This document shows positions 9,616 through 24,186 of a stretch of 45,457 nucleotides of DNA, one piece after another. Numbering within the stretch: position 1 is the stretch's first letter; every line of letters starts with the position of its first letter. Location of the stretch: NCBI GenBank assembly GCA_023137185.1, contig JAGLPS010000002.1, positions 1-45,457 on the forward strand, read 5' to 3'. The DNA comes from Minisyncoccota bacterium (GTDB lineage Bacteria; Patescibacteriota; Minisyncoccia; Phycocordibacterales; JAGLPS01). A program made the position numbers and the translations under genes. Below the pieces are notes generated by a model that did not search any database, had not been told where the DNA came from, and saw only the letters and a list, made by a program, of their open reading frames with translations.

Positions 9616-11097
9616 TTATTTTACCCAATGTTTTTCTCGAATTTCTTTTACTTTCTTCCCCTCTTCTTCTTCCTTTCTTGATTTTCCTTTTTCCCCAATA
9701 TTTTTTAATGTTTCATCTGAAAGCTTCACTAGTTTCTCGGCTTTTTTTAGCAAAACATTTTTTTTATTTAAAGTAGGGTCTTCCAAAACATTCTCTAATA
9801 GGGCATGTAAAATATGGCCTATTTTAGGTCCCGGATTCATTTTAAGTTCTTTCATAAGAATGTTTCCGTCTACGCGTAACATCGTGACTGAAACAGGGTC
9901 GGCCATAACTTCTTCAATCATAGACTTATACTTACGTAATCTGTAAGGGCTTTCTTTGGGTCTTCCTGTCCCAATACGGTCACACATTCTTACATTTATT
10001 AGATTCCACACATCCTCTTTCCCTACACGTGAAACCAAGCGACGCACTGCGGAAAGCGATATTTTCTCAGTATCAGAGAAAAACATATGCCAACGGACAA
10101 GTTTAAACACCTTTTCCGTAATTTCCTTTGAAAATCTGAGATTTTTTAATATTTTTTCTGTAATTCTAGCCCCAACCACATCATGCCCATGAAATATCCA
10201 GTCCTTTTTTTCTTCTGACCACTCACGTATGTATGACTTTCCGATATCATGAAATAACGTCGCGAGCCTAATACTGATGTCCCATTTTTTATTGACAGCG
10301 TGTTGCAAGCTTTTTAAGCTGTGTGTCCATACATCAAAAGAATGCGCCTTATTTTGTTTTATACCAATTCCTTTTTCTAATTCAGGAACAATATACTTCA
10401 AAACCCCCAATTTCTGGCTTAAAACAATAGATTCTGAGGGATTGTCTGAAAGAATAATCCTTGTAAATTCATCCCGTATTCTTTCTTTTGAGATTTTTTC
10501 AAGTAAATAAGCACTTTCTTTAATTGCTGTTTCTGTATCGGTGTTTAACGTGAAACTAAGTTCCGCGTGAAGCCTTATAGCTCTCAATATTCTTAGGCCG
10601 TCTTCTCTAAACCTTTCTTTAGGTTTTCCGACAGTTCTTATAATTTTTTCTTTTAAGTCTTTCTCTCCACTGTGCAAGTCGATGGTCCCCTTTTGTGGGT
10701 TGTAGGCAATTGCGTTGATTGTAAAATCCCTTCTTTTTAAATCGTCTTCGATTTTTTTGCTGAAGGCAACAGAATCAGGACGTCTATTGTCTGAATATGA
10801 TGTTTCAAGCCGAAAAGGAGTTATCTCAATAATCTCTAGACTTTTGTCCTTTACATTTTTATTCACTACTCCCACTGTCCCATAGTTATTCTCGTAAAAA
10901 GTTTCTTCAAATAAAGATATAATTTGTTCGGGTAATGCGTCAGTGGTGATATCCCAATCTTTGGGTTTTCTTTTAAGTAACAAATCTCTCACGCATCCCC
11001 CAACAATATAGGCTTCAAAACCTTCATTTTCCAGTTTCTCTATGATTCCGAGAACCTCTTTTGGTATTTTTAATTTCTGGTTTTTCAGGGTCTTCAT
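9616..11097 (-). CDS. cca: CCA tRNA nucleotidyltransferase with HD domain
   Basis: VGGCVRD, DWDITT, RRDFTINA, EDGLRILRA, LFHDIGK. Confidence 0.9.
   Translation of the reverse strand: MKTLKNQKLKIPKEVLGIIEKLENEGFEAYIVGGCVRDLLLKRKPKDWDITTDALPEQIISLFEETFYENNYGTVGVVNKNVKDKSLEIIEITPFRLETSYSDNRRPDSVAFSKKIEDDLKRRDFTINAIAYNPQKGTIDLHSGEKDLKEKIIRTVGKPKERFREDGLRILRAIRLHAELSFTLNTDTETAIKESAYLLEKISKERIRDEFTRIILSDNPSESIVLSQKLGVLKYIVPELEKGIGIKQNKAHSFDVWTHSLKSLQHAVNKKWDISIRLATLFHDIGKSYIREWSEEKKDWIFHGHDVVGARITEKILKNLRFSKEITEKVFKLVRWHMFFSDTEKISLSAVRRLVSRVGKEDVWNLINVRMCDRIGTGRPKESPYRLRKYKSMIEEVMADPVSVTMLRVDGNILMKELKMNPGPKIGHILHALLENVLEDPTLNKKNVLLKKAEKLVKLSDETLKNIGEKGKSRKEEEEGKKVKEIREKHWVK
10542..10557. promoter_or_regulatory. 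parS-like site inside cca
   Basis: TGTTTAACGTGAAACT, 14/16 match to consensus TGTTTCACGTGAAACA. Confidence 0.55.
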
Positions 11098-11775: not shown

Positions 11776-11792
11776 ACATCTGTTTGTTTCTT

Positions 11793-12194
11793 ATGAAACA
11801 GAAGACCAACAGAAAAAAAGTAGGCGACATTGGAGAAAATATTGCTACAAAATTTCTTATAAAAAAGGGGTTCAGAGTGTTATCGCGAAACTATCTCAAG
11901 CCCTTTGGGGAAATAGATATTATTGCTGAAATAAAAGGTACTCTACATTTTATAGAAGTAAAAACGGTTTCATGTGAAAATATAGAAACATTTCTCAAAA
12001 AAAGGGATTTTTATAGACCAGAGGACAATGTCCACGCTTGGAAGCTCTCTAGGATATCAAAAACAATACAAGTGTATTTATCTGAAAAACATCTTTCTGA
12101 AGATGTCGAATGGGTTTTTGATGTTGTGGCTATTTATTTAGATGTTAAGACAAAAAAAGCGAGGGTTTCTTTTCTTGAAGATATCATTTTATAA
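11793..12194 (+). CDS. yraN: YraN family (UPF0102) putative endonuclease
   Basis: GDIGENIA, GEIDII and FIEVK PD-(D/E)xK-type motifs. Confidence 0.88.
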   Translation: MKQKTNRKKVGDIGENIATKFLIKKGFRVLSRNYLKPFGEIDIIAEIKGTLHFIEVKTVSCENIETFLKKRDFYRPEDNVHAWKLSRISKTIQVYLSEKHLSEDVEWVFDVVAIYLDVKTKKARVSFLEDIIL

Positions 12195-12253
12195 CTTATA
12201 TTACGCTAAATTTCTGTGTTTCTTTCTTTGTTTATGGTATGCTTGTATGACTT

Positions 12254-12460
12254 TGGGGTATGGTGTAATGGCTAACATACTCGCTTTAGGATCAATTTTT
12301 TGTCGGGGCGTAGTACAATGGTAGTATACACGCTTTGGGAGCGTGAGACCCGAGTCCGATTCTCGGCGCCCCGACAAAGAATTGATCGGATGTTCGGAAA
12401 ATATCCGTGGAATTCCTTTAAGGAACTGAACGACTCCCGGTTCGAATCCGAGTACCCCGA
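12254..12460 (+). ncRNA. Outer tRNA-Pro-like shell interrupted in the anticodon arm (pseudo-tRNA or novel tRNA-like RNA)
   Basis: 5' half TGGGGTA-TG-GTGT-AATGGCTA-ACAT-A-CTCGC-TTTAGG. 3' half GACT-CCCGG-TTCGAAT-CCGAG-TACCCCG-A. Extended -10 TGGTATGCT at 12235-12243. Confidence 0.7.
12304..12374 (+). tRNA. tRNA-Pro(TGG), nested in the outer shell
   Basis: CGGGGCG/CGCCCCG-A acceptor, GTAC/GTAT D stem, CACGC-TTTGGGA-GCGTG anticodon arm, CCGAG-TCCGATT-CTCGG T arm. Confidence 0.9.
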
Positions 12461-12493
12461 TATAATATTTAAAGCAAAGAATTATCGCGCCTA

Positions 12494-12526
12494 GCAAGCC
12501 TGCTTGCGGTAGGCAGGTGTGGGGGT
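12494..12526. repeat. Palindromic repeat plus lone GGTGTGGGGGT element end
   Basis: CCTGCTTGCGGTAGGCAGG hairpin, related to 19973-19992. The terminus matches those at 40317 and 42720. Confidence 0.5.
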
Positions 12527-12542
12527 TTGTTCCGAAAAATCT

Positions 12543-13832
12543 TTATTTTGCTAACCCTCTCTTTAAGATTTCTGAAAAGACAGGGAAACTAATGCGGTAA
12601 AACGCGTTTACATAATTGTTTATATCAGCCTTAACAAAGCTAGAAAGGTCTAGAGAAATCTCTGCATACAGGCTTTGGCTAATATGGGACGCAGTAATTG
12701 CTCGCAAGTCTCGTTCAGATGTCTGTGCTTCTTCAGTTGTTGTAACAACTATGCCTACTATGTTACCGTATTTATTAACAATGGCTCCTCCTGAAGACCC
12801 TTTTTGGGCTAAGATACTGCTACCAATTGAAAAAAGGTCAACAGTTTCGGCGGTAAAAGTAAATATCTCACGTACCGTAACTATAGAAGAAACGCTATGT
12901 AGTTCGTTAAAAACGACAAAACCTCCTAAAAATCCAGCGGGATATCCGGCGACAAGCACCTGCTCATTTTTTTGCGGGGTGGAGGTTACGCCAACTGGTA
13001 CAAAAGGAAAACTCTTAGGTAAAGTCTTCGTTTCAGACACCATAGATGTGATAAAGAGAAAACCGTAATCGTTTTCTCCAGTACCTTTAGGATTTACTTC
13101 CGTGATATTTGTTGCGTTTTCTTGCAACCATTGTGCTGAAATATGGGCTATTTTAGCTTTATACGAAGATTGCGCGGGGCTTCCAGTGCGTATAAAGCAA
13201 TCAGCCAAATCTGGAAGGAGAAAATACTGCGCAATATGAGCATTTGTAAGAATTAAGCCTTTGGGGTCTATGATTACTCCGCTACCGCTGATAGGACTCA
13301 GTATGTTACTTTTTGGTATGCAAAGAATGTTAACAAGAGCCGCTTTTGTTTTTTGGTTTATCTCTTCAAAGTCTTGTTCTAAGAAAGAGGGGAGAGAAAG
13401 AGCGACATTGGCACCACTAGTATTTTTTTCTTCAAAGTCTTGTTTTAAATCGTCGTCGATACTTATTTGTTTCCGCTCGTTTTTTTTAGTGTCTATATCT
13501 GCAACTTCCTTTTCTTGTTGATTTGGAGCGGATGATTCTTCTGTTTCCTTATTGGCTCCGTTTACTTTGGTGTAGTCTTGCGGTAGTAGTGGACTTTCCT
13601 GCGAATATATGTCCCTGCGGTCTTTGTCGCAGGGTAATATCGGTATTCGCTCTGCTCGTTCAACCACCCCGCCGCAGGCGGGGTGGTATTGACCTATAGT
13701 TTGACTTTGCTCGGATGCCATGAAAGCTCGGAAGCTTTCATGGCATCCTCGCTCGTCAAAATAAGAAAACAAAACAGCAATTATGATAAAAATCCCGAAA
13801 CCGAACTTCAGAAAAACATTCATATGCTTCAT
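12543..13832 (-). CDS. Membrane-anchored trypsin-like (S1) serine protease
   Basis: N-terminal TM helix; GSGVII, LTNAHI (His), ENDYG (Asp), KGSSGG (Ser). Confidence 0.88.
   Translation of the reverse strand: MKHMNVFLKFGFGIFIIIAVLFSYFDERGCHESFRAFMASEQSQTIGQYHPACGGVVERAERIPILPCDKDRRDIYSQESPLLPQDYTKVNGANKETEESSAPNQQEKEVADIDTKKNERKQISIDDDLKQDFEEKNTSGANVALSLPSFLEQDFEEINQKTKAALVNILCIPKSNILSPISGSGVIIDPKGLILTNAHIAQYFLLPDLADCFIRTGSPAQSSYKAKIAHISAQWLQENATNITEVNPKGTGENDYGFLFITSMVSETKTLPKSFPFVPVGVTSTPQKNEQVLVAGYPAGFLGGFVVFNELHSVSSIVTVREIFTFTAETVDLFSIGSSILAQKGSSGGAIVNKYGNIVGIVVTTTEEAQTSERDLRAITASHISQSLYAEISLDLSSFVKADINNYVNAFYRISFPVFSEILKRGLAK
13613..13760 (-). repeat. Composite palindromic repeat inserted in frame in the protease gene
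   Basis: Hairpins at 13613-13634, 13663-13687 and 13713-13748. 13685-13760 is homologous to intergenic 19960-20066. Confidence 0.75.
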
Positions 13833-14712: not shown

Positions 14713-16242
14713 CTAACGAGCAAATTCAATGGCCCGTGCCTCTCGAATAACATTCACCTTGATTTCTCCCGGGTATTTAAGTTCATTTTCTATGCGTAAA
14801 GCTATATCCCTAGCCATTTTTCGGGCATCTGTGTCAGATGCTTCTGCTGATTTTACGAAAATTCTTATTTCTCGGCCTGCAGAAATAGCATACGACTTTT
14901 CCACACTAGGGAATGAGTTAGCAATTGCTTCAAGATCTTCAAGGCGTTTCAGGTAGTTTTCAACTGTGTCACGGCGAACTCCAGGTCTTCCAGCTGATAT
15001 TGCGTCAACAGCTTGCACAATATATGCCTCTGGTATTTCGTATGGGTACTCATCATGGTGTGATTGCATTGCTTGAATTATCTTTGAGTCGGCACCAAAC
15101 TTCTGAAGAATTCGTTTTCCAATTTCAACGTGAGTTCCTGACACCTCATGATCAACAGCTTTACCAATGTCATGAAGAAGTGCCGCCGCTTTTGCTACGT
15201 ATACGTCTGCCCCAAGTTCTTCAGCGATCATTTCAGCTAAATGTGCCATTTCAATTGAATGTTGAAGTACGTTCTGTCCATAACTGGTACGATAATGCAG
15301 CCTTCCTAAAATTGCCACAATTCTCTGGTCAAGATTGAACACTCCGCATTCATATACCGCCTGTTCTCCTTTTTCTTTTATAACCTCATTTATTTCTTTT
15401 TTTGCTTTTTCAATCATTTCCTCGATTTTTGCAGGCTGAATTCTTCCATCAGCAATAAGATTTTCAAGAGCAATACGCGCAACCTGTCTTCGAACGGAGT
15501 CAAATGATGAAAGAGTAATAAAACCGGGGGTATCATCAACAATTACTTCCACGCCGCTCACTCGTTCAAATGTTTTTATGTTACGCCCCTCTTTACCGAT
15601 GATTTTTCCCTTGATTTCATCAGATGGAATAGCAACGGTTGTTGTCATAATATCTGACGAAACAGAATTCGCGAGACGTTGAATTGATGTAGTGAGAATT
15701 TCTTTCGCCTTTCTTTCCAAACTTTCTTTTCCTAGCGTTTCAAGTTTTTGCATTCGTATCATCAGATCTTCTGCTGTCTGTTTTTCAACAACAGACAGGA
15801 GCTCTTTTTTAGCCTCGTCTTTTGTTATTCCCGCAACTTTCTCAAGCTCCGTTTCTTTTTGTAGTTTTAGATCCTCCGTACGTTCGCGAATAGTTTTTAT
15901 TTCAGCGACTTTTTCTTTTACACCTTCTATTTCCTTATCAGTATCGAGTTGTCGTTTGTCTAGAAATTCCTCCTTTTTTATCAAACGCCCTTCAGTTTTT
16001 TTCAACTGGTCTTCTTTTTCTTTAACTTCTATGCGAACTTCTTTTAAAGTTTCTTCGGCCTTTTTCTCTGCTCCGGCAACTGTTTTTGTGGCTTCGTCTT
16101 TCGCTTCAAGCAACATCTGCTTGACCTTAAGCTCTGTTGATCCCCGGTTTCCTAGCGAAATCATCCATCGCAGGAAATATCCAAAAGCGACACCAAGGAG
16201 CGCTGCCGAAATCGCGAAAAGAAGCGCTATTTTTAATGACAT
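14713..16242 (-). CDS. rny: Ribonuclease Y
   Basis: N-terminal TM and coiled coil, KH domain (KGKIIGKEGRNI), HD domain (LLHDIGK), RTSYGQNVLQHS. Confidence 0.96.
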   Translation of the reverse strand: MSLKIALLFAISAALLGVAFGYFLRWMISLGNRGSTELKVKQMLLEAKDEATKTVAGAEKKAEETLKEVRIEVKEKEDQLKKTEGRLIKKEEFLDKRQLDTDKEIEGVKEKVAEIKTIRERTEDLKLQKETELEKVAGITKDEAKKELLSVVEKQTAEDLMIRMQKLETLGKESLERKAKEILTTSIQRLANSVSSDIMTTTVAIPSDEIKGKIIGKEGRNIKTFERVSGVEVIVDDTPGFITLSSFDSVRRQVARIALENLIADGRIQPAKIEEMIEKAKKEINEVIKEKGEQAVYECGVFNLDQRIVAILGRLHYRTSYGQNVLQHSIEMAHLAEMIAEELGADVYVAKAAALLHDIGKAVDHEVSGTHVEIGKRILQKFGADSKIIQAMQSHHDEYPYEIPEAYIVQAVDAISAGRPGVRRDTVENYLKRLEDLEAIANSFPSVEKSYAISAGREIRIFVKSAEASDTDARKMARDIALRIENELKYPGEIKVNVIREARAIEFAR

Positions 16243-19959: not shown

Positions 19960-20066
19960 TTTGACGAGCGAGCCTGCCTATCACAGGCTTGCCCAGCCAG
20001 GGGAGACCGCGAAAACTTCTAAATTTAATGGCGTCCGAGAGCGAAGTCAAACTATGAGTCAATACC
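19960..20066 (+). repeat. Intergenic copy of the repeat in the protease gene, with a nested CCTGCCTA..CAGGCTTGC unit
   Basis: TTTGACGAGCGAG ... GTCAAACTATGAGTCAATACC matches the reverse complement of 13685-13760. Confidence 0.7.
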
Positions 20067-20828: not shown

Positions 20829-22049
20829 TTATAGCACTTCTTTTTTTGCGTCTTCTGCATCTTTACTTTTTTCTGTGTTATTTTCATCTTTCTCTTTTTC
20901 CTCAAGGACGGTATCTTCAATGTCGGCTTCCTTATTGCTTTTGTCACTCTGAGGGGATTGGATATCAATTTTCCATCCGGTCAGTTTCGCCGCAAGGCGA
21001 ACATTTTGCCCTCCTTTCCCGATCGCGAGAGATTGCTGATCTTCTGACACTTCAACTCGGGCTTCTTTTTCTTCCTCGCTAACGATTCCAACTGAGAGTA
21101 TCTTGGCAGGAGAAAGAGCGTCTTCTATAAATTCTTGAGGAATGTCAGACCATTCAATGATGTCTATTTTTTCTCCCCCAAGCTCGCTCATTACCGTAGT
21201 TACTCTCACGCCACGTTGACCAACCATTGAACCAACAGGATCGATGTGTTCATCGTGGGAATACACAGCAATTTTGCTACGGGAACCGGCTTCACGAGCG
21301 ATTGACTTTATTTCAACCACTCCTGAACCGATTTCAGGAGTTTCAATTTCGAACAGTTTTTCCAAGAATTTTGGATGTGAACGTGACAAGCGCAAAAATA
21401 CTCCTCTAGGGGTTTCTTCAACGCGATAGAGATATGCTCTAATTCGCTCTCCGGGACGGTAATGCTCTCCACGTATTTGCTCTTCAAGTGAAAGTAGGCC
21501 TGTCGCTCTTCCCATATCAACAAAAATATTACCTCTTTCCATCCTTTGAACTACTCCGGTAACAATTTCGTCTTCGTGTTTTCCGTATTCGCCAAGTACA
21601 GAAACTTTTTCTGCTTCACGAATTTTCTGAATAATCATTTGTTTCGCGGTTTGAGCTGCGATACGGCCGTAATCACCCTTTGTTTCAAGAGGGAATACTA
21701 TCTCTTCACCTACTGTCGAACCCTTTCTGATTTTTTGAGCATTGGAAAGAAGAATATGTTTTTCAGCATTAAGCACCTCCTTTTCTGTATCTATATCTCC
21801 GCTTGCAAGTTTTTCTTCTTCAGTCATAAACACTTCAGATTCGTCCACGATTATTTTAACCTGGAAAAAATTTGTTTCACCATTTTCTGGGTTAAATTGA
21901 GCGCGAATGATTTGTCCTCGTTTCCCGTACTCTTTCTTGTATGCGGTTGCGAGGGCCATTCCAATTGCTTCAACGATTTTTTCTCTTGGAATACCACGTT
22001 CTTCTTCAAGCTGGTCTAATACAGAATGAATAACTTTTAGATCAAACAT
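20829..22049 (-). CDS. nusA: Transcription factor NusA
   Basis: GRIAAQTAKQ, S1 domain, AREAGSRSKIAV, GKGGQNVRLAAKLTGWKIDI. Confidence 0.97.
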   Translation of the reverse strand: MFDLKVIHSVLDQLEEERGIPREKIVEAIGMALATAYKKEYGKRGQIIRAQFNPENGETNFFQVKIIVDESEVFMTEEEKLASGDIDTEKEVLNAEKHILLSNAQKIRKGSTVGEEIVFPLETKGDYGRIAAQTAKQMIIQKIREAEKVSVLGEYGKHEDEIVTGVVQRMERGNIFVDMGRATGLLSLEEQIRGEHYRPGERIRAYLYRVEETPRGVFLRLSRSHPKFLEKLFEIETPEIGSGVVEIKSIAREAGSRSKIAVYSHDEHIDPVGSMVGQRGVRVTTVMSELGGEKIDIIEWSDIPQEFIEDALSPAKILSVGIVSEEEKEARVEVSEDQQSLAIGKGGQNVRLAAKLTGWKIDIQSPQSDKSNKEADIEDTVLEEKEKDENNTEKSKDAEDAKKEVL

Positions 22050-22431: not shown

Positions 22432-24186
22432 ATGTACATTGAGGAAGCCCAACTTAAAGATTTTATTCTTGACTCTGATTTAATTTCTCGATCAGATTTT
22501 GAAAAAGCAGAAAAGAAGGCCGTCGCCGAGGGTTCGAGTATTGGGAAAGTTCTGGTTGATCAAGGAAAAATCAGTGAAGACGATCTGCGAAAAGTTCAGG
22601 CGCATATTCTGGGTATTCCATTTGTTGATCTTAAGAACGAAAAGATTGATTTTGAAGTGTTGTCCCTTATTCCAGAACCAATTGCGCGAAATCACAACAT
22701 TGTCACCTTTCGCGCCGTCGAAGGATCTCTTGAAGTTGCGATGTTGGATACTGAAGATTTAGCGGCTATTGACTTTGTTAAAAAGAAAACTGGTCTCAAA
22801 ATTCTTCCCCGCCTTACTGATACTGAGTCAATGAAAAACGCTTTGTTGCAATATCAGAAGAGCCTCAAGGCGGAATTTGGGGACATTATTCAGAAAGAAG
22901 CGTTGTCATTGAAGATGGCGCCTGAAGGTGGGGAAGGGGAACTTTCAGAAAGTGATTTAAAGGAACTTGCTGAAGATATTCCTGTTATTCGTATTGTAGA
23001 TACACTTCTCAAACACGCCATCATTCAGAATGCTTCTGATATTCATATAGAGCCAATGGAAACTCAGGTTTTGGTGAGGTATCGGATTGACGGCATTTTG
23101 CATGACGCGATGGTACTTCCTAAAAATGTTGCTGGCAGTATTACCGCTCGCATAAAAGTGCTTTCTAATTTGAAGCTTGACGAAAAACGACTTCCGCAGG
23201 ACGGACGCTTCAAAGTGGAGGTTAACAGTGAAAGTGTTTCGTTTCGTGTCTCAACAATTCCAACGTATTTTGGTGAAAAAACAGTTATGCGTGTTCTTCG
23301 TGAGAGCGCGTCAGGTTTTTCCCTTGAAGTCCTTGGTTTCCACGGTGAAGCACTCGAATATATTCATAGCGCGACTAAGTTGACTACCGGTATGATTCTT
23401 ACCACAGGACCAACTGGCTCAGGTAAAACAACCACGCTCTATACTGTGTTAGATATTCTCAATACACCAGATGTTAATATATCAACCATTGAGGACCCTA
23501 TTGAGTATCAAATGAAGCGAGTAAATCAGACGCAGGTAAAACCAGATATAGGATTTACATTTGCGGGTGGTTTGCGCTCACTTGTTCGACAGGACCCCGA
23601 TATAATTATGGTTGGCGAGATTCGTGACCATGAGACGGCATCACTCGCAGTTAACGCTGCTCTTACCGGGCATCTTGTGCTTTCGACACTCCATACGAAC
23701 TCCGCGGCAGGAGCAATACCACGTCTTATTGATATGAAAGTCGAGCCGTTTCTGCTTGTGTCTACTCTTAACGTTATTATTGCGCAGCGCCTTATCAGAA
23801 AACTTGCGGAAAATAAAGAAAAAAGGATGCTCGGAAAAGATGAGATTGTAACTCTTGAAAAAAGTATTGATCTTAACAAGGTTCTTGAGTTTCTTAAAAA
23901 AGAAAAAGTTGTAAAAGAAGATGCGACATGGGAAAAAATTCCCTTTTATAGCGCTGTTGCTTCCAATGACGCCCCTGATGGATACAGCGGTCGGGTGGGC
24001 ATTTATGAGGTGCTTCAGGTCTCATCCGCGATAAAAGAATTAATTCTTAAAAATGAGACAAGTTATGCGATTGACGAACAAGCAAGAAAAGAAGGTATGA
24101 TGACAATGATAGAAGATGGTATTTTTAAAGCGGTTCAAGGATTAACAACAATAGAAGAAGTACTTCGTGTTATTTCTTCAGAGTAA
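22432..24186 (+). CDS. pilB: Type IV pilus assembly ATPase PilB/GspE
   Basis: ASDIHIEP, RLPQDGR, GPTGSGKTT, EDPIEY, RQDPDIIMVGEIRD, TGHLVLSTLH. Confidence 0.95.
   Translation: MYIEEAQLKDFILDSDLISRSDFEKAEKKAVAEGSSIGKVLVDQGKISEDDLRKVQAHILGIPFVDLKNEKIDFEVLSLIPEPIARNHNIVTFRAVEGSLEVAMLDTEDLAAIDFVKKKTGLKILPRLTDTESMKNALLQYQKSLKAEFGDIIQKEALSLKMAPEGGEGELSESDLKELAEDIPVIRIVDTLLKHAIIQNASDIHIEPMETQVLVRYRIDGILHDAMVLPKNVAGSITARIKVLSNLKLDEKRLPQDGRFKVEVNSESVSFRVSTIPTYFGEKTVMRVLRESASGFSLEVLGFHGEALEYIHSATKLTTGMILTTGPTGSGKTTTLYTVLDILNTPDVNISTIEDPIEYQMKRVNQTQVKPDIGFTFAGGLRSLVRQDPDIIMVGEIRDHETASLAVNAALTGHLVLSTLHTNSAAGAIPRLIDMKVEPFLLVSTLNVIIAQRLIRKLAENKEKRMLGKDEIVTLEKSIDLNKVLEFLKKEKVVKEDATWEKIPFYSAVASNDAPDGYSGRVGIYEVLQVSSAIKELILKNETSYAIDEQARKEGMMTMIEDGIFKAVQGLTTIEEVLRVISSE

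Follow-up and report, generated by a model that had tools for sequence, protein, structure and literature searches.

The window analyzed here, a 45,457-nucleotide stretch of contig JAGLPS010000002.1 from a Minisyncoccota bacterium (Patescibacteriota), contains a complete proline tRNA gene nested between the two halves of a second tRNA-Pro gene. With a probability of roughly 55%, we read this locus as a resident tRNA-Pro gene that was split by an intron-like cassette lacking an open reading frame (ORF) and supplying both a working tRNA and a structure for its processing, with the outer shell being largely vestigial. Below, G000 denotes the window's own genome, other G numbers denote related genomes, and L numbers denote loci taken from them. 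The G000 genome comprises 699 kb at a completeness of 100, and the genomes of its relatives range from 0.4 to 1.4 Mb.

All parts of the nest are on the forward strand. The outer 5' half, read directly at 12254 to 12290, represents tRNA positions 1 to 37 and shares 89% identity over 37 nt with the 5' part of tRNA-Pro(tgg) in G002. Its acceptor strand is TGGGGTA and its D arm is paired; CTCGC, the 5' strand of the anticodon stem, leads into the loop TTTAGG, which stops at position 37 and in which the anticodon reads TAG, mutated from TGG. Next comes the 13-nt 5' strand of a helix designated P1 (12291 to 12303; G12290 pairs too, and the partner is 12374 to 12387), followed by the intact inner tRNA-Pro(UGG) at 12304 to 12374, which is called as a tRNA by both the Rfam tRNA model (RF00005; 63.1 bits against a threshold of 29) and ARAGORN (tRNA-Pro(tgg), 12304 to 12375) and in which all four stems are fully paired in a full-length alignment. 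The P1 3' strand occupies 12375 to 12387, and A73 of the inner tRNA (12374) pairs with T12303, so that P1 runs on into the acceptor stem without a break, and a repeat search recovers the two as a single 21-nt inverted repeat (12290 to 12310 and 12367 to 12387) with 95% complementarity. Downstream lie hairpin HP1 (12388 to 12406; covariance model score of 70.2 bits), a G-Y-G-G linker (12407 to 12410; GTGG in the window, with two trailing G residues that are invariant in the seed alignment), and hairpin HP2 (12411 to 12427, with its core at 12413 to 12425), which directly abuts position 41 of the outer tRNA. The outer 3' half (positions 41 to 73; 12428 to 12460) shares 80% identity over 46 nt with the 3' part of the G002 gene and comprises 3 nt of the anticodon stem (GAA, positions 41 to 43), the variable loop, a T arm with one C-A mismatch, and an acceptor strand, with A73 at 12460. 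In the outer acceptor stem, TACCCCG pairs with TGGGGTA at seven of seven positions, U1-G72 included; positions 38 to 40 are missing from the outer tRNA. The insert between the outer halves measures 137 nt (12291 to 12427), has no ORF, and consists of tRNA over 71 nt of its length. Folding of the full 207 nt gives the nested shape, with -82.9 kcal/mol and z = -4.44, and none of 200 shuffled sequences folded as well.

This anatomy had been outlined in an earlier sequence-only reading of the same DNA, and each structural element listed there, including the intact inner tRNA and the helix extending its acceptor stem, was recovered in its proposed place or within a few bases of it. The outer 3' half, with its C-A mismatch, begins at 12428 by homology to the uninterrupted relative G002 rather than at 12432 as first supposed. 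An 8-nt pairing between 12426 to 12433 and 12281 to 12289, which had been thought to close the junction, is not kept in relatives, among which only a 2- to 3-bp remnant of the anticodon stem (27 to 29 with 41 to 43) recurs.

The G000 tRNA set comprises 43 genes, and only two of them are for proline: the inner gene (UGG) and, on a different contig, a CGG gene. As the inner tRNA is the sole tRNA-Pro(UGG) in the genome, it must be a working gene that is expressed, matured, and released. The locus is repeat-like and comes from a metagenome-assembled genome, and misassembly or chance resemblance had to be considered. Contigs from four DNA runs (cold-seep metagenomes) cover 12100 to 12600 base for base without any difference, a single contig, belonging to a run without a possible-source flag, spans 12183 to 12600, and homologous nests are found in dozens of independent genomes. 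The four-run agreement and the independent recurrence argue that the locus is not an assembly artefact, an explanation to which we give almost no weight.

Comparison among related genomes indicates clear selection at the RNA level on P1, HP1, and HP2. In 20 of the 26 loci having P1 and a recognizable outer 5' half, G37 is the last base of that half and lies about 14 nt ahead of the inner tRNA, and the same 20 loci have a P1 of ~15 bp plus the 7-bp acceptor stem; three loci have a longer P1. In every nest read, HP2 abuts outer position 41 and positions 38 to 40 are missing. P1 is bimodal among the 96 tRNA-Pro genes of the fetched loci, with at least 12 of 15 leader/trailer pairs in 37 genes and 3 to 8 in most others. 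The -1/73 pair is T-A in all 37 P1-bearing genes, and the pairs in these genes include 484 Watson-Crick, 39 G-U, 4 A-C, and 28 other combinations, some of the wobbles being inherited, so that there are fewer events than counted cells. The excess of G-U over A-C argues that P1 has been selected as an RNA helix on the strand of the tRNA and not as a DNA palindrome.

For HP1 and HP2, all 13 modeled pairs (7 in HP1 and 6 in HP2) show double changes across 51 distinct sequences in a model-fitted alignment of 52 matches. The cells of these pairs are paired in 94.3% of cases, compared with 74.6% in shuffles (none of 500 shuffles reached the observed values) and 26 to 53% in slid controls, figures that are generous given the model-fitted alignment and the relatedness of the sequences. 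The MAFFT seed alignment already shows seven covarying HP1 pairs. Conservation of the stem sequences of HP1-GYGG-HP2 and of the two G residues suggests a protein or tertiary contact. Several other interpretations of these parts were considered and, on inspection of the sequences, set aside. A T-box-like UGGN role for GYGG in binding the CCA end of the tRNA does not fit, as Y is C in about half of the cases and the next base mismatches A73; pairing of GYGG with outer-stem positions 28 to 31 and a reading of the P1 ends as integron-type core sites were both inconsistent between genomes; and the module with the 3' half does not make a cloverleaf, HP1 being too long for a D arm. At the gathering threshold, Rfam recognizes only tRNA in the window, and at E values of up to 1 on eight loci it returned only tRNA and obvious false positives overlapping tRNAs.

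The sequence-only reading had allowed that the locus might be unique, and it proved instead to be one member of a widespread, conserved family. G003, from the same family and another genus, has a nest with 90% identity by BLAST over 156 nt covering the outer 5' half, P1, the inner tRNA, and HP1, and G033, from another family, has a nest in which the P1 sequence is different and compensating. An order-wide BLAST search covered 401 genomes, and inspection of the fetched loci revealed many more nests. We built a covariance model from 16 loci, extending from the 3' strand of the inner T stem through the P1 3' strand (P1'), HP1, GYGG, and HP2 into the outer 3' half, and accepted matches at E values of 1e-5 or better. 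This module matched 22 of 151 sampled genomes of the order, representing 21 families (counted by hand); in a class-wide sample of 151 genomes it matched four genomes labeled as the same class, three of which read as nested tRNA-Pro(CGG), and in a phylum-wide sample of 151 genomes no match came from other classes. The module accompanies all three proline anticodons (UGG, CGG, and GGG), and public records carrying it are labeled Patescibacteria group, Paceibacterota, Kaiserbacteria, and Saccharibacteria. Scanning genome contigs for an exact pattern returned at least 120 stretches, and 6 of the 80 loci checked were true by the covariance model and 74 were chance matches in large genomes, the pattern being too loose for a census.

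Nesting can be repeated. Four loci, in G055, G106, G057, and G001, have three-level nests, and in G079 and G098 the module is arrayed in tandem together with the 3' half. The unit P1'-HP1-GYGG-HP2 plus 3' half is present in two copies in G079:C1 (L089), where the 5' unit is repeated as well, and in three copies in G098:C10 (L081), and ARAGORN miscalls one such unit as tRNA-Ala; judged by their layout, these arrays are as would be expected from unequal crossover between repeated halves. At L006 (G030, minus strand), a newer P1-tRNA-P1' unit lies inside an older one, with a 3' remnant of the old tRNA and its own P1' strand beside HP1, an arrangement that suggests successive replacement from inside. 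An orphan module (L094; G000:C10, ~21343 to 21407, minus strand; 23.6 bits), composed of HP1-GCGG-HP2 with a P1'-like lead-in, lies just 5' of tRNA-Ala(GGC) with no tRNA-Pro and is probably the relic of a lost nest. On the same contig, an ARAGORN call at 19962 to 20053, a 92-nt "tRNA-???" whose anticodon (ccag) has four bases, is probably false.

UPF0102/YraN (11784 to 12194, forward strand; Pfam PF02021, 70.1 bits) is the conserved upstream neighbor of the nest, and tblastn places yraN directly 5' of tRNA-Pro, nested or plain, in at least 45 loci, which are therefore orthologous. G002 has an uninterrupted tRNA-Pro at this locus, against which the two outer halves from the window match 2 nt apart by BLAST, and its congener G003 has the nest. 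At this locus G001, a congener of G000, carries a plain tRNA-Pro whose sequence is of a third type; it also has a nested GGG gene elsewhere. YraN of G000 is 57%, 53%, and 51% identical to that of G001, G003, and G002, respectively; identity between the G000 and G003 cassettes, by contrast, is 90%. This pattern of filled and empty sites, together with the contrast between cassette and YraN identities, points to insertion or allelic exchange and not to simple vertical descent. The sequence-only reading had offered two explanations. Inactivation of a native tRNA-Pro by a cassette carrying a whole replacement tRNA fits best, given the uninterrupted relative and the eroded shells; a carrier RNA that releases a passenger tRNA gains from the RNA-level selection on P1, HP1, and HP2 and from the need to release the inner tRNA, but it fits less well and stands as a rival.

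In 12 full-length nests chosen for uninterrupted shells, the inner stems are 100% paired, whereas the outer acceptor stem is paired at 7 of 7 positions in seven nests, the D stem at 4 of 4 in seven, and the T stem at 5 of 5 in seven; counts for HP2 and for the 3-bp anticodon remnant in this 12-sequence alignment were lowered by MAFFT misalignment and were not used. G170 and G385, from one genus, have identical inner tRNAs and different lesions in the outer 5' half, with a 75-nt insertion in the 3' half of G385, and G147 and G280, also from one genus, each have their own uncompensated break in the acceptor stem. Other shells (G003, G280, G382, G385, G528, and others) carry hairpin insertions in the D loop or an ~80-nt element in the T loop. 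By local alignment, 39 P1-bearing genes were divided into 16 with both halves, 10 with only the 5' half, 4 with only the 3' half, and 9 with neither, in a sample that is nonrandom and in which divergent halves, such as the 3' half in the window, fall below the score threshold.

The main rival reading is that the whole nest is a composite functional RNA. According to this explanation, the outer halves would form a tRNA-shaped scaffold in which a four-way junction of P1, HP1, and HP2 takes the place of the anticodon arm, and this scaffold would be seen by RNase P or the CCA-adding enzyme, would protect the passenger or time its release, and might endure in two pieces as a tRNA-like RNA that has a role of its own. 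In G000, G003, G033, G294, G076, G090, and G502, the pairs in which the outer and inner acceptor stems differ are all compensated; the insertions in the D and T loops are structured hairpins; the 37|41 junction and the abutment of HP2 are constant; the nest is kept in very small genomes of at least 21 families; and the minimum free energy fold is the nested shape described above. On the other hand, the shell is eroded, shortened, or gone in many genomes that keep P1, HP1, and HP2, conserved T-loop bases are mutated in the shells of G147, G215, G055, and G270, the two congeneric pairs show independent uncompensated acceptor breaks, and a plain tRNA-Pro at the same locus in close relatives implies that the shell is dispensable. 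We regard the scaffold as possible and not as probable. The compensated differences in the window had been noticed in the sequence-only reading, and its statement that the nest is not a simple recent duplication holds for the window. In G033, G090, and G294, the inner and outer D arms and anticodon stems are identical and the acceptor stems differ, and we attribute such patterns, which are read from the sequences themselves, to two different parental tRNA-Pro genes whose interior, and not whose edges, would have been homogenized by gene conversion; this accounts for the compensated differences better than does selection on the shell.

Several points nevertheless weigh against a split gene whose shell is mostly a vestige. 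Of 11 informative nests, 6 have acceptor differences that are fully compensated, with 11 to 12 compensated pairs versus 7 uncompensated breaks as counted by hand, and these differences could reflect selection on the shell and not two parental genes. Insertions in the shell are neat hairpins in loops, as expected if its fold mattered. The retention of ~140 nt flanked by direct repeats in a tiny, streamlined genome argues for a benefit. We found no inserting enzyme or autonomous parent element, and the inner and outer P1 sequences in triple nests are unrelated, so a single mobile sequence is no explanation. The loci examined were chosen from BLAST or model matches and the relatives are not independent, and transcription, the places of cleavage, and what becomes of the shell are deduced from sequence.

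Two kinds of insertion into tRNA loops were seen repeatedly. The ~80-nt element has three hairpins, lies between the 5' strand of the T stem and the T loop in relic tRNA 3' halves, and has no Rfam match. It is present at L071 (G000:C10, ~22530 to 22620, minus strand; 3' of tRNA-Pro(CGG)), at L072 (G000:C17; 3' of tRNA-Lys(UUU)), and at L002 (G003, minus strand, ~1475 to 1395; inside the outer tRNA-Pro). When the fetched loci were searched by BLAST with the 80-nt element, just two more copies turned up, and T-loop inserts that resemble it by eye occur in G382, G135, G090, and G528; what looked like a copy in reverse orientation was not confirmed. A hairpin of ~33 nt with a 4-nt loop is located in the D loop of outer 5' halves at L064 (G280), L059 (G185), L092 (G098:C11), and L097 (G528), with compensating stem changes between genomes.

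Could the insert be removed by splicing and the outer halves be joined into a second tRNA-Pro? The structured insert starts after position 37, and both in the window and in relatives it occupies the 37/38 site that is canonical for archaeal-type tRNA introns. However, positions 38 to 40 are absent from every nest read, leaving no 5-bp anticodon stem, and a bulge-helix-bulge motif is not found, since G36 and G37 are base paired as part of P1, position 41 follows HP2 directly, and no 4-bp helix flanked by 3-nt bulges can be read. Neither the splicing endonuclease EndA (PF01974; control positive in four archaea) nor the ligase RtcB (PF01139; control positive in 10 genomes) has any match in G000, making splicing unlikely, in agreement with the sequence-only reading. 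Nor does the insert resemble a group I intron or another ribozyme, as it has no Rfam match even at E values of up to 1 and measures 137 nt compared with at least 200 nt. ARAGORN, allowing introns of 0 to 400 nt, makes no call for the outer shell in either the genome or the window. With an outer anticodon of TAG in the window and eroded shells elsewhere, we consider a true intron very improbable.

The outer halves might instead be scars of the attL/attR type, left where an integrating phage or other element disrupted tRNA-Pro, brought its own copy, and was since deleted down to the tRNA. Anticodon loops and T loops are classic integrase targets, and other tRNAs of G000 are followed by partial 3' copies. 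In particular, tRNA-Ser(UGA) (C6, 6459 to 6546), tRNA-Lys(UUU) (C17, 1518 to 1591), tRNA-Ser(GGA) (C16, 11662 to 11748), and tRNA-Ser(CGA) (C26, 23147 to 23234) (L072 to L075) have leader/trailer helices of 8 to 17 bp continuous with the acceptor stem, and a partial 3' copy of the same tRNA follows each of them; the phenomenon in G000 is therefore not limited to proline. The topology also matches that of tRNA-dependent lysogeny (PMC10865867), in that the outer tRNA is not reconstructed and the inserted tRNA is of the same isotype, and in an archaeal precedent (PMC3293823) a mobile element left a 5' tRNA fragment behind. Against this explanation, an integrase duplication would concern only the 3' part and leave the functional gene its native 5' part, whereas here both 5' and 3' halves flank a complete gene. 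The four neighboring ORFs (CCA-adding enzyme, UPF0102, a trypsin-like protease, and RNase Y) include no integrase or mobile gene, and the insert is no prophage, having only 137 nt, no ORF, and no tyrosine integrase. In G051, where the 5' half and P1 occur without the 3' half, extending the locus revealed neither a 3' half farther away nor an obvious mobile gene. The exact pattern matched viral contigs nine times, and none of these matches was true. Finally, a covarying P1/HP1/GYGG/HP2 layout kept across an order is unlike random deletion remnants, and we judge such scars to be improbable.

Returning to the split-gene reading, the following course of events is the most likely. The tRNA-Pro gene 3' of yraN would have been split in the anticodon loop after position 37, with loss of positions 38 to 40, by a cassette consisting of the P1 5' strand, a complete tRNA-Pro, the P1 3' strand, HP1, GYGG, and HP2, with no ORF. 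The promoter of the old gene would then drive a single precursor of ~210 nt, in which P1 pairs the inner leader with the trailer from -1/73 outward and, with the acceptor stem, would build a continuous helix of ~22 bp. This helix may keep the inner halves from mispairing with the look-alike outer halves and would probably serve as an entry site for RNase III, after which RNase P, 3' trimming, and CCA addition would finish the tRNA. HP1-GYGG-HP2 is a conserved, structured trailer element, and the outer halves presumably are not ligated. The halves may stay recognizable because they recombine with the inner copy by gene conversion and unequal crossover, and recurrence of the process would lead to two- and three-level nests. 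The leader-trailer duplex of about two helical turns is of the kind expected for an RNase III stem, and G000 encodes RNase III (PF14622; 132.7 bits; contig C24). A candidate RNase P RNA (L070; G000:C26, 1714 to 1937, minus strand; 224 nt) scores 39.8 bits, below the Rfam gathering score of 100, which points to a strongly reduced RNase P RNA.

A candidate extended -10-like motif, TGGTATGCT, is directly readable at 12235 to 12243 on the forward strand, ~10 nt 5' of outer position 1, and similar TGnTAnnnT motifs lie 5' of tRNA-Pro genes in the printed sequences of relatives. The sequence-only reading had pointed to this motif, which is present and gets no score in a simple -35/-10 promoter scan of the window; as an inference only, it may be the promoter for the whole nested transcript. 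On the other side of the nest, a weak 13-nt copy of the P1 3' strand can be read directly at 12475 to 12487 (forward strand; one gap relative to 12375 to 12388), below the threshold of the repeat search and with low confidence, and clearer trailer copies occur in G528 and G082. A GC-rich imperfect palindrome at 12487 to 12520, directly 3' of the nest, may be a terminator or a REP-like repeat, and similar palindromes lie beside the tRNA-Pro genes of relatives (L006, L080, L081, and L082). More broadly, the genes for the CCA-adding enzyme (9616 to 11097, minus strand) and RNase Y (14713 to 16242, minus strand) bracket a cluster of four tRNA genes (Arg, Gly, Pro, and Gly).

Our search of the literature (supplements not covered) turned up no account of nested tRNA genes, nor any of tRNA insertions in Patescibacteria. 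The nearest concept is tRNA-dependent lysogeny, and the nearest structural analogy is the archaeal intron at 37/38. Some tRNA introns carry a functional RNA, such as the box C/D guide in the tRNA-Trp intron. The nest resembles archaeal and eukaryal tRNA introns at 37/38 in having a structured insert after nucleotide 37 and in housing a functional RNA within a tRNA gene. Unlike archaeal introns, which involve the bulge-helix-bulge, EndA, and RtcB, it has none of these, lacks positions 38 to 40, and sits in an eroding shell; its cargo is a full tRNA, which we propose is released by ordinary tRNA processing rather than by splicing. In bacterial rRNA operons, leader-trailer stems are cut by RNase III. 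P1 is comparable to these stems in forming, from the flanks, a helix of ~21 to 22 bp continuous with the terminal stem in an organism that encodes RNase III, and differs from them in flanking a tRNA. Engineered tRNA scaffolds for recombinant RNA, in which a foreign structured RNA replaces the anticodon arm, have reportedly been made by Ponchon and Dardel; those scaffolds are man-made, whereas the natural shell here appears not to be strictly conserved.

In tRNA-dependent lysogeny (Guerrero-Bustamante and Hatfull 2024, PMC10865867), actinobacteriophages disrupt a host tRNA and bring a tRNA of that isotype with the insert. That system comprises a whole prophage, a tyrosine integrase, and a 10-bp core, whereas the nest comprises ~137 nt with no ORF, a conserved RNA structure, inheritance across an order, and repeated nesting. 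Among archaeal disrupted tRNA genes (split, permuted, and multi-intron), one study describes a tRNA-Thr fragment beside a mobile element in Caldiarchaeum (PMC3293823). Fragments beside a complete gene of the same isotype that are attributed to mobile DNA, as well as insertions in the D, anticodon, and T loops, are likenesses to the nests, and the nests differ in being bacterial, nested rather than split or permuted, and without a recombinase.

Overall, nesting would represent a fourth layout of tRNA gene disruption beside intron-containing, split, and permuted genes, in bacteria without tRNA splicing machinery. Together, P1, HP1, GYGG, and HP2 define a conserved, structured RNA that is new, has no Rfam family, and is limited to a single class of Patescibacteria, and standard tRNA finders call such loci plain tRNAs and miss their context. 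We tentatively speculate, while regarding the full set of claims as doubtful, that these loci may belong to an undescribed class of ORF-less, intron-like elements in Patescibacteria ("matryoshka tRNA"). Such an element would invade tRNA-Pro at the canonical intron site, bring its own tRNA so that no splicing is needed, be matured by tRNA-processing and double-strand-specific RNases, and spread between genes and species by recombination via the conserved tRNA halves, with the shell and HP1-GYGG-HP2 surviving as a functional two-piece tRNA-like RNA. If the cassette is mobile, it would be a minimal selfish element that breaks an essential gene yet spares its host, since it brings a substitute along; a functional shell, in turn, would amount to a natural tRNA scaffold. 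Either way, the nests make pre-tRNA processing directly testable in organisms with a reduced set of RNases.

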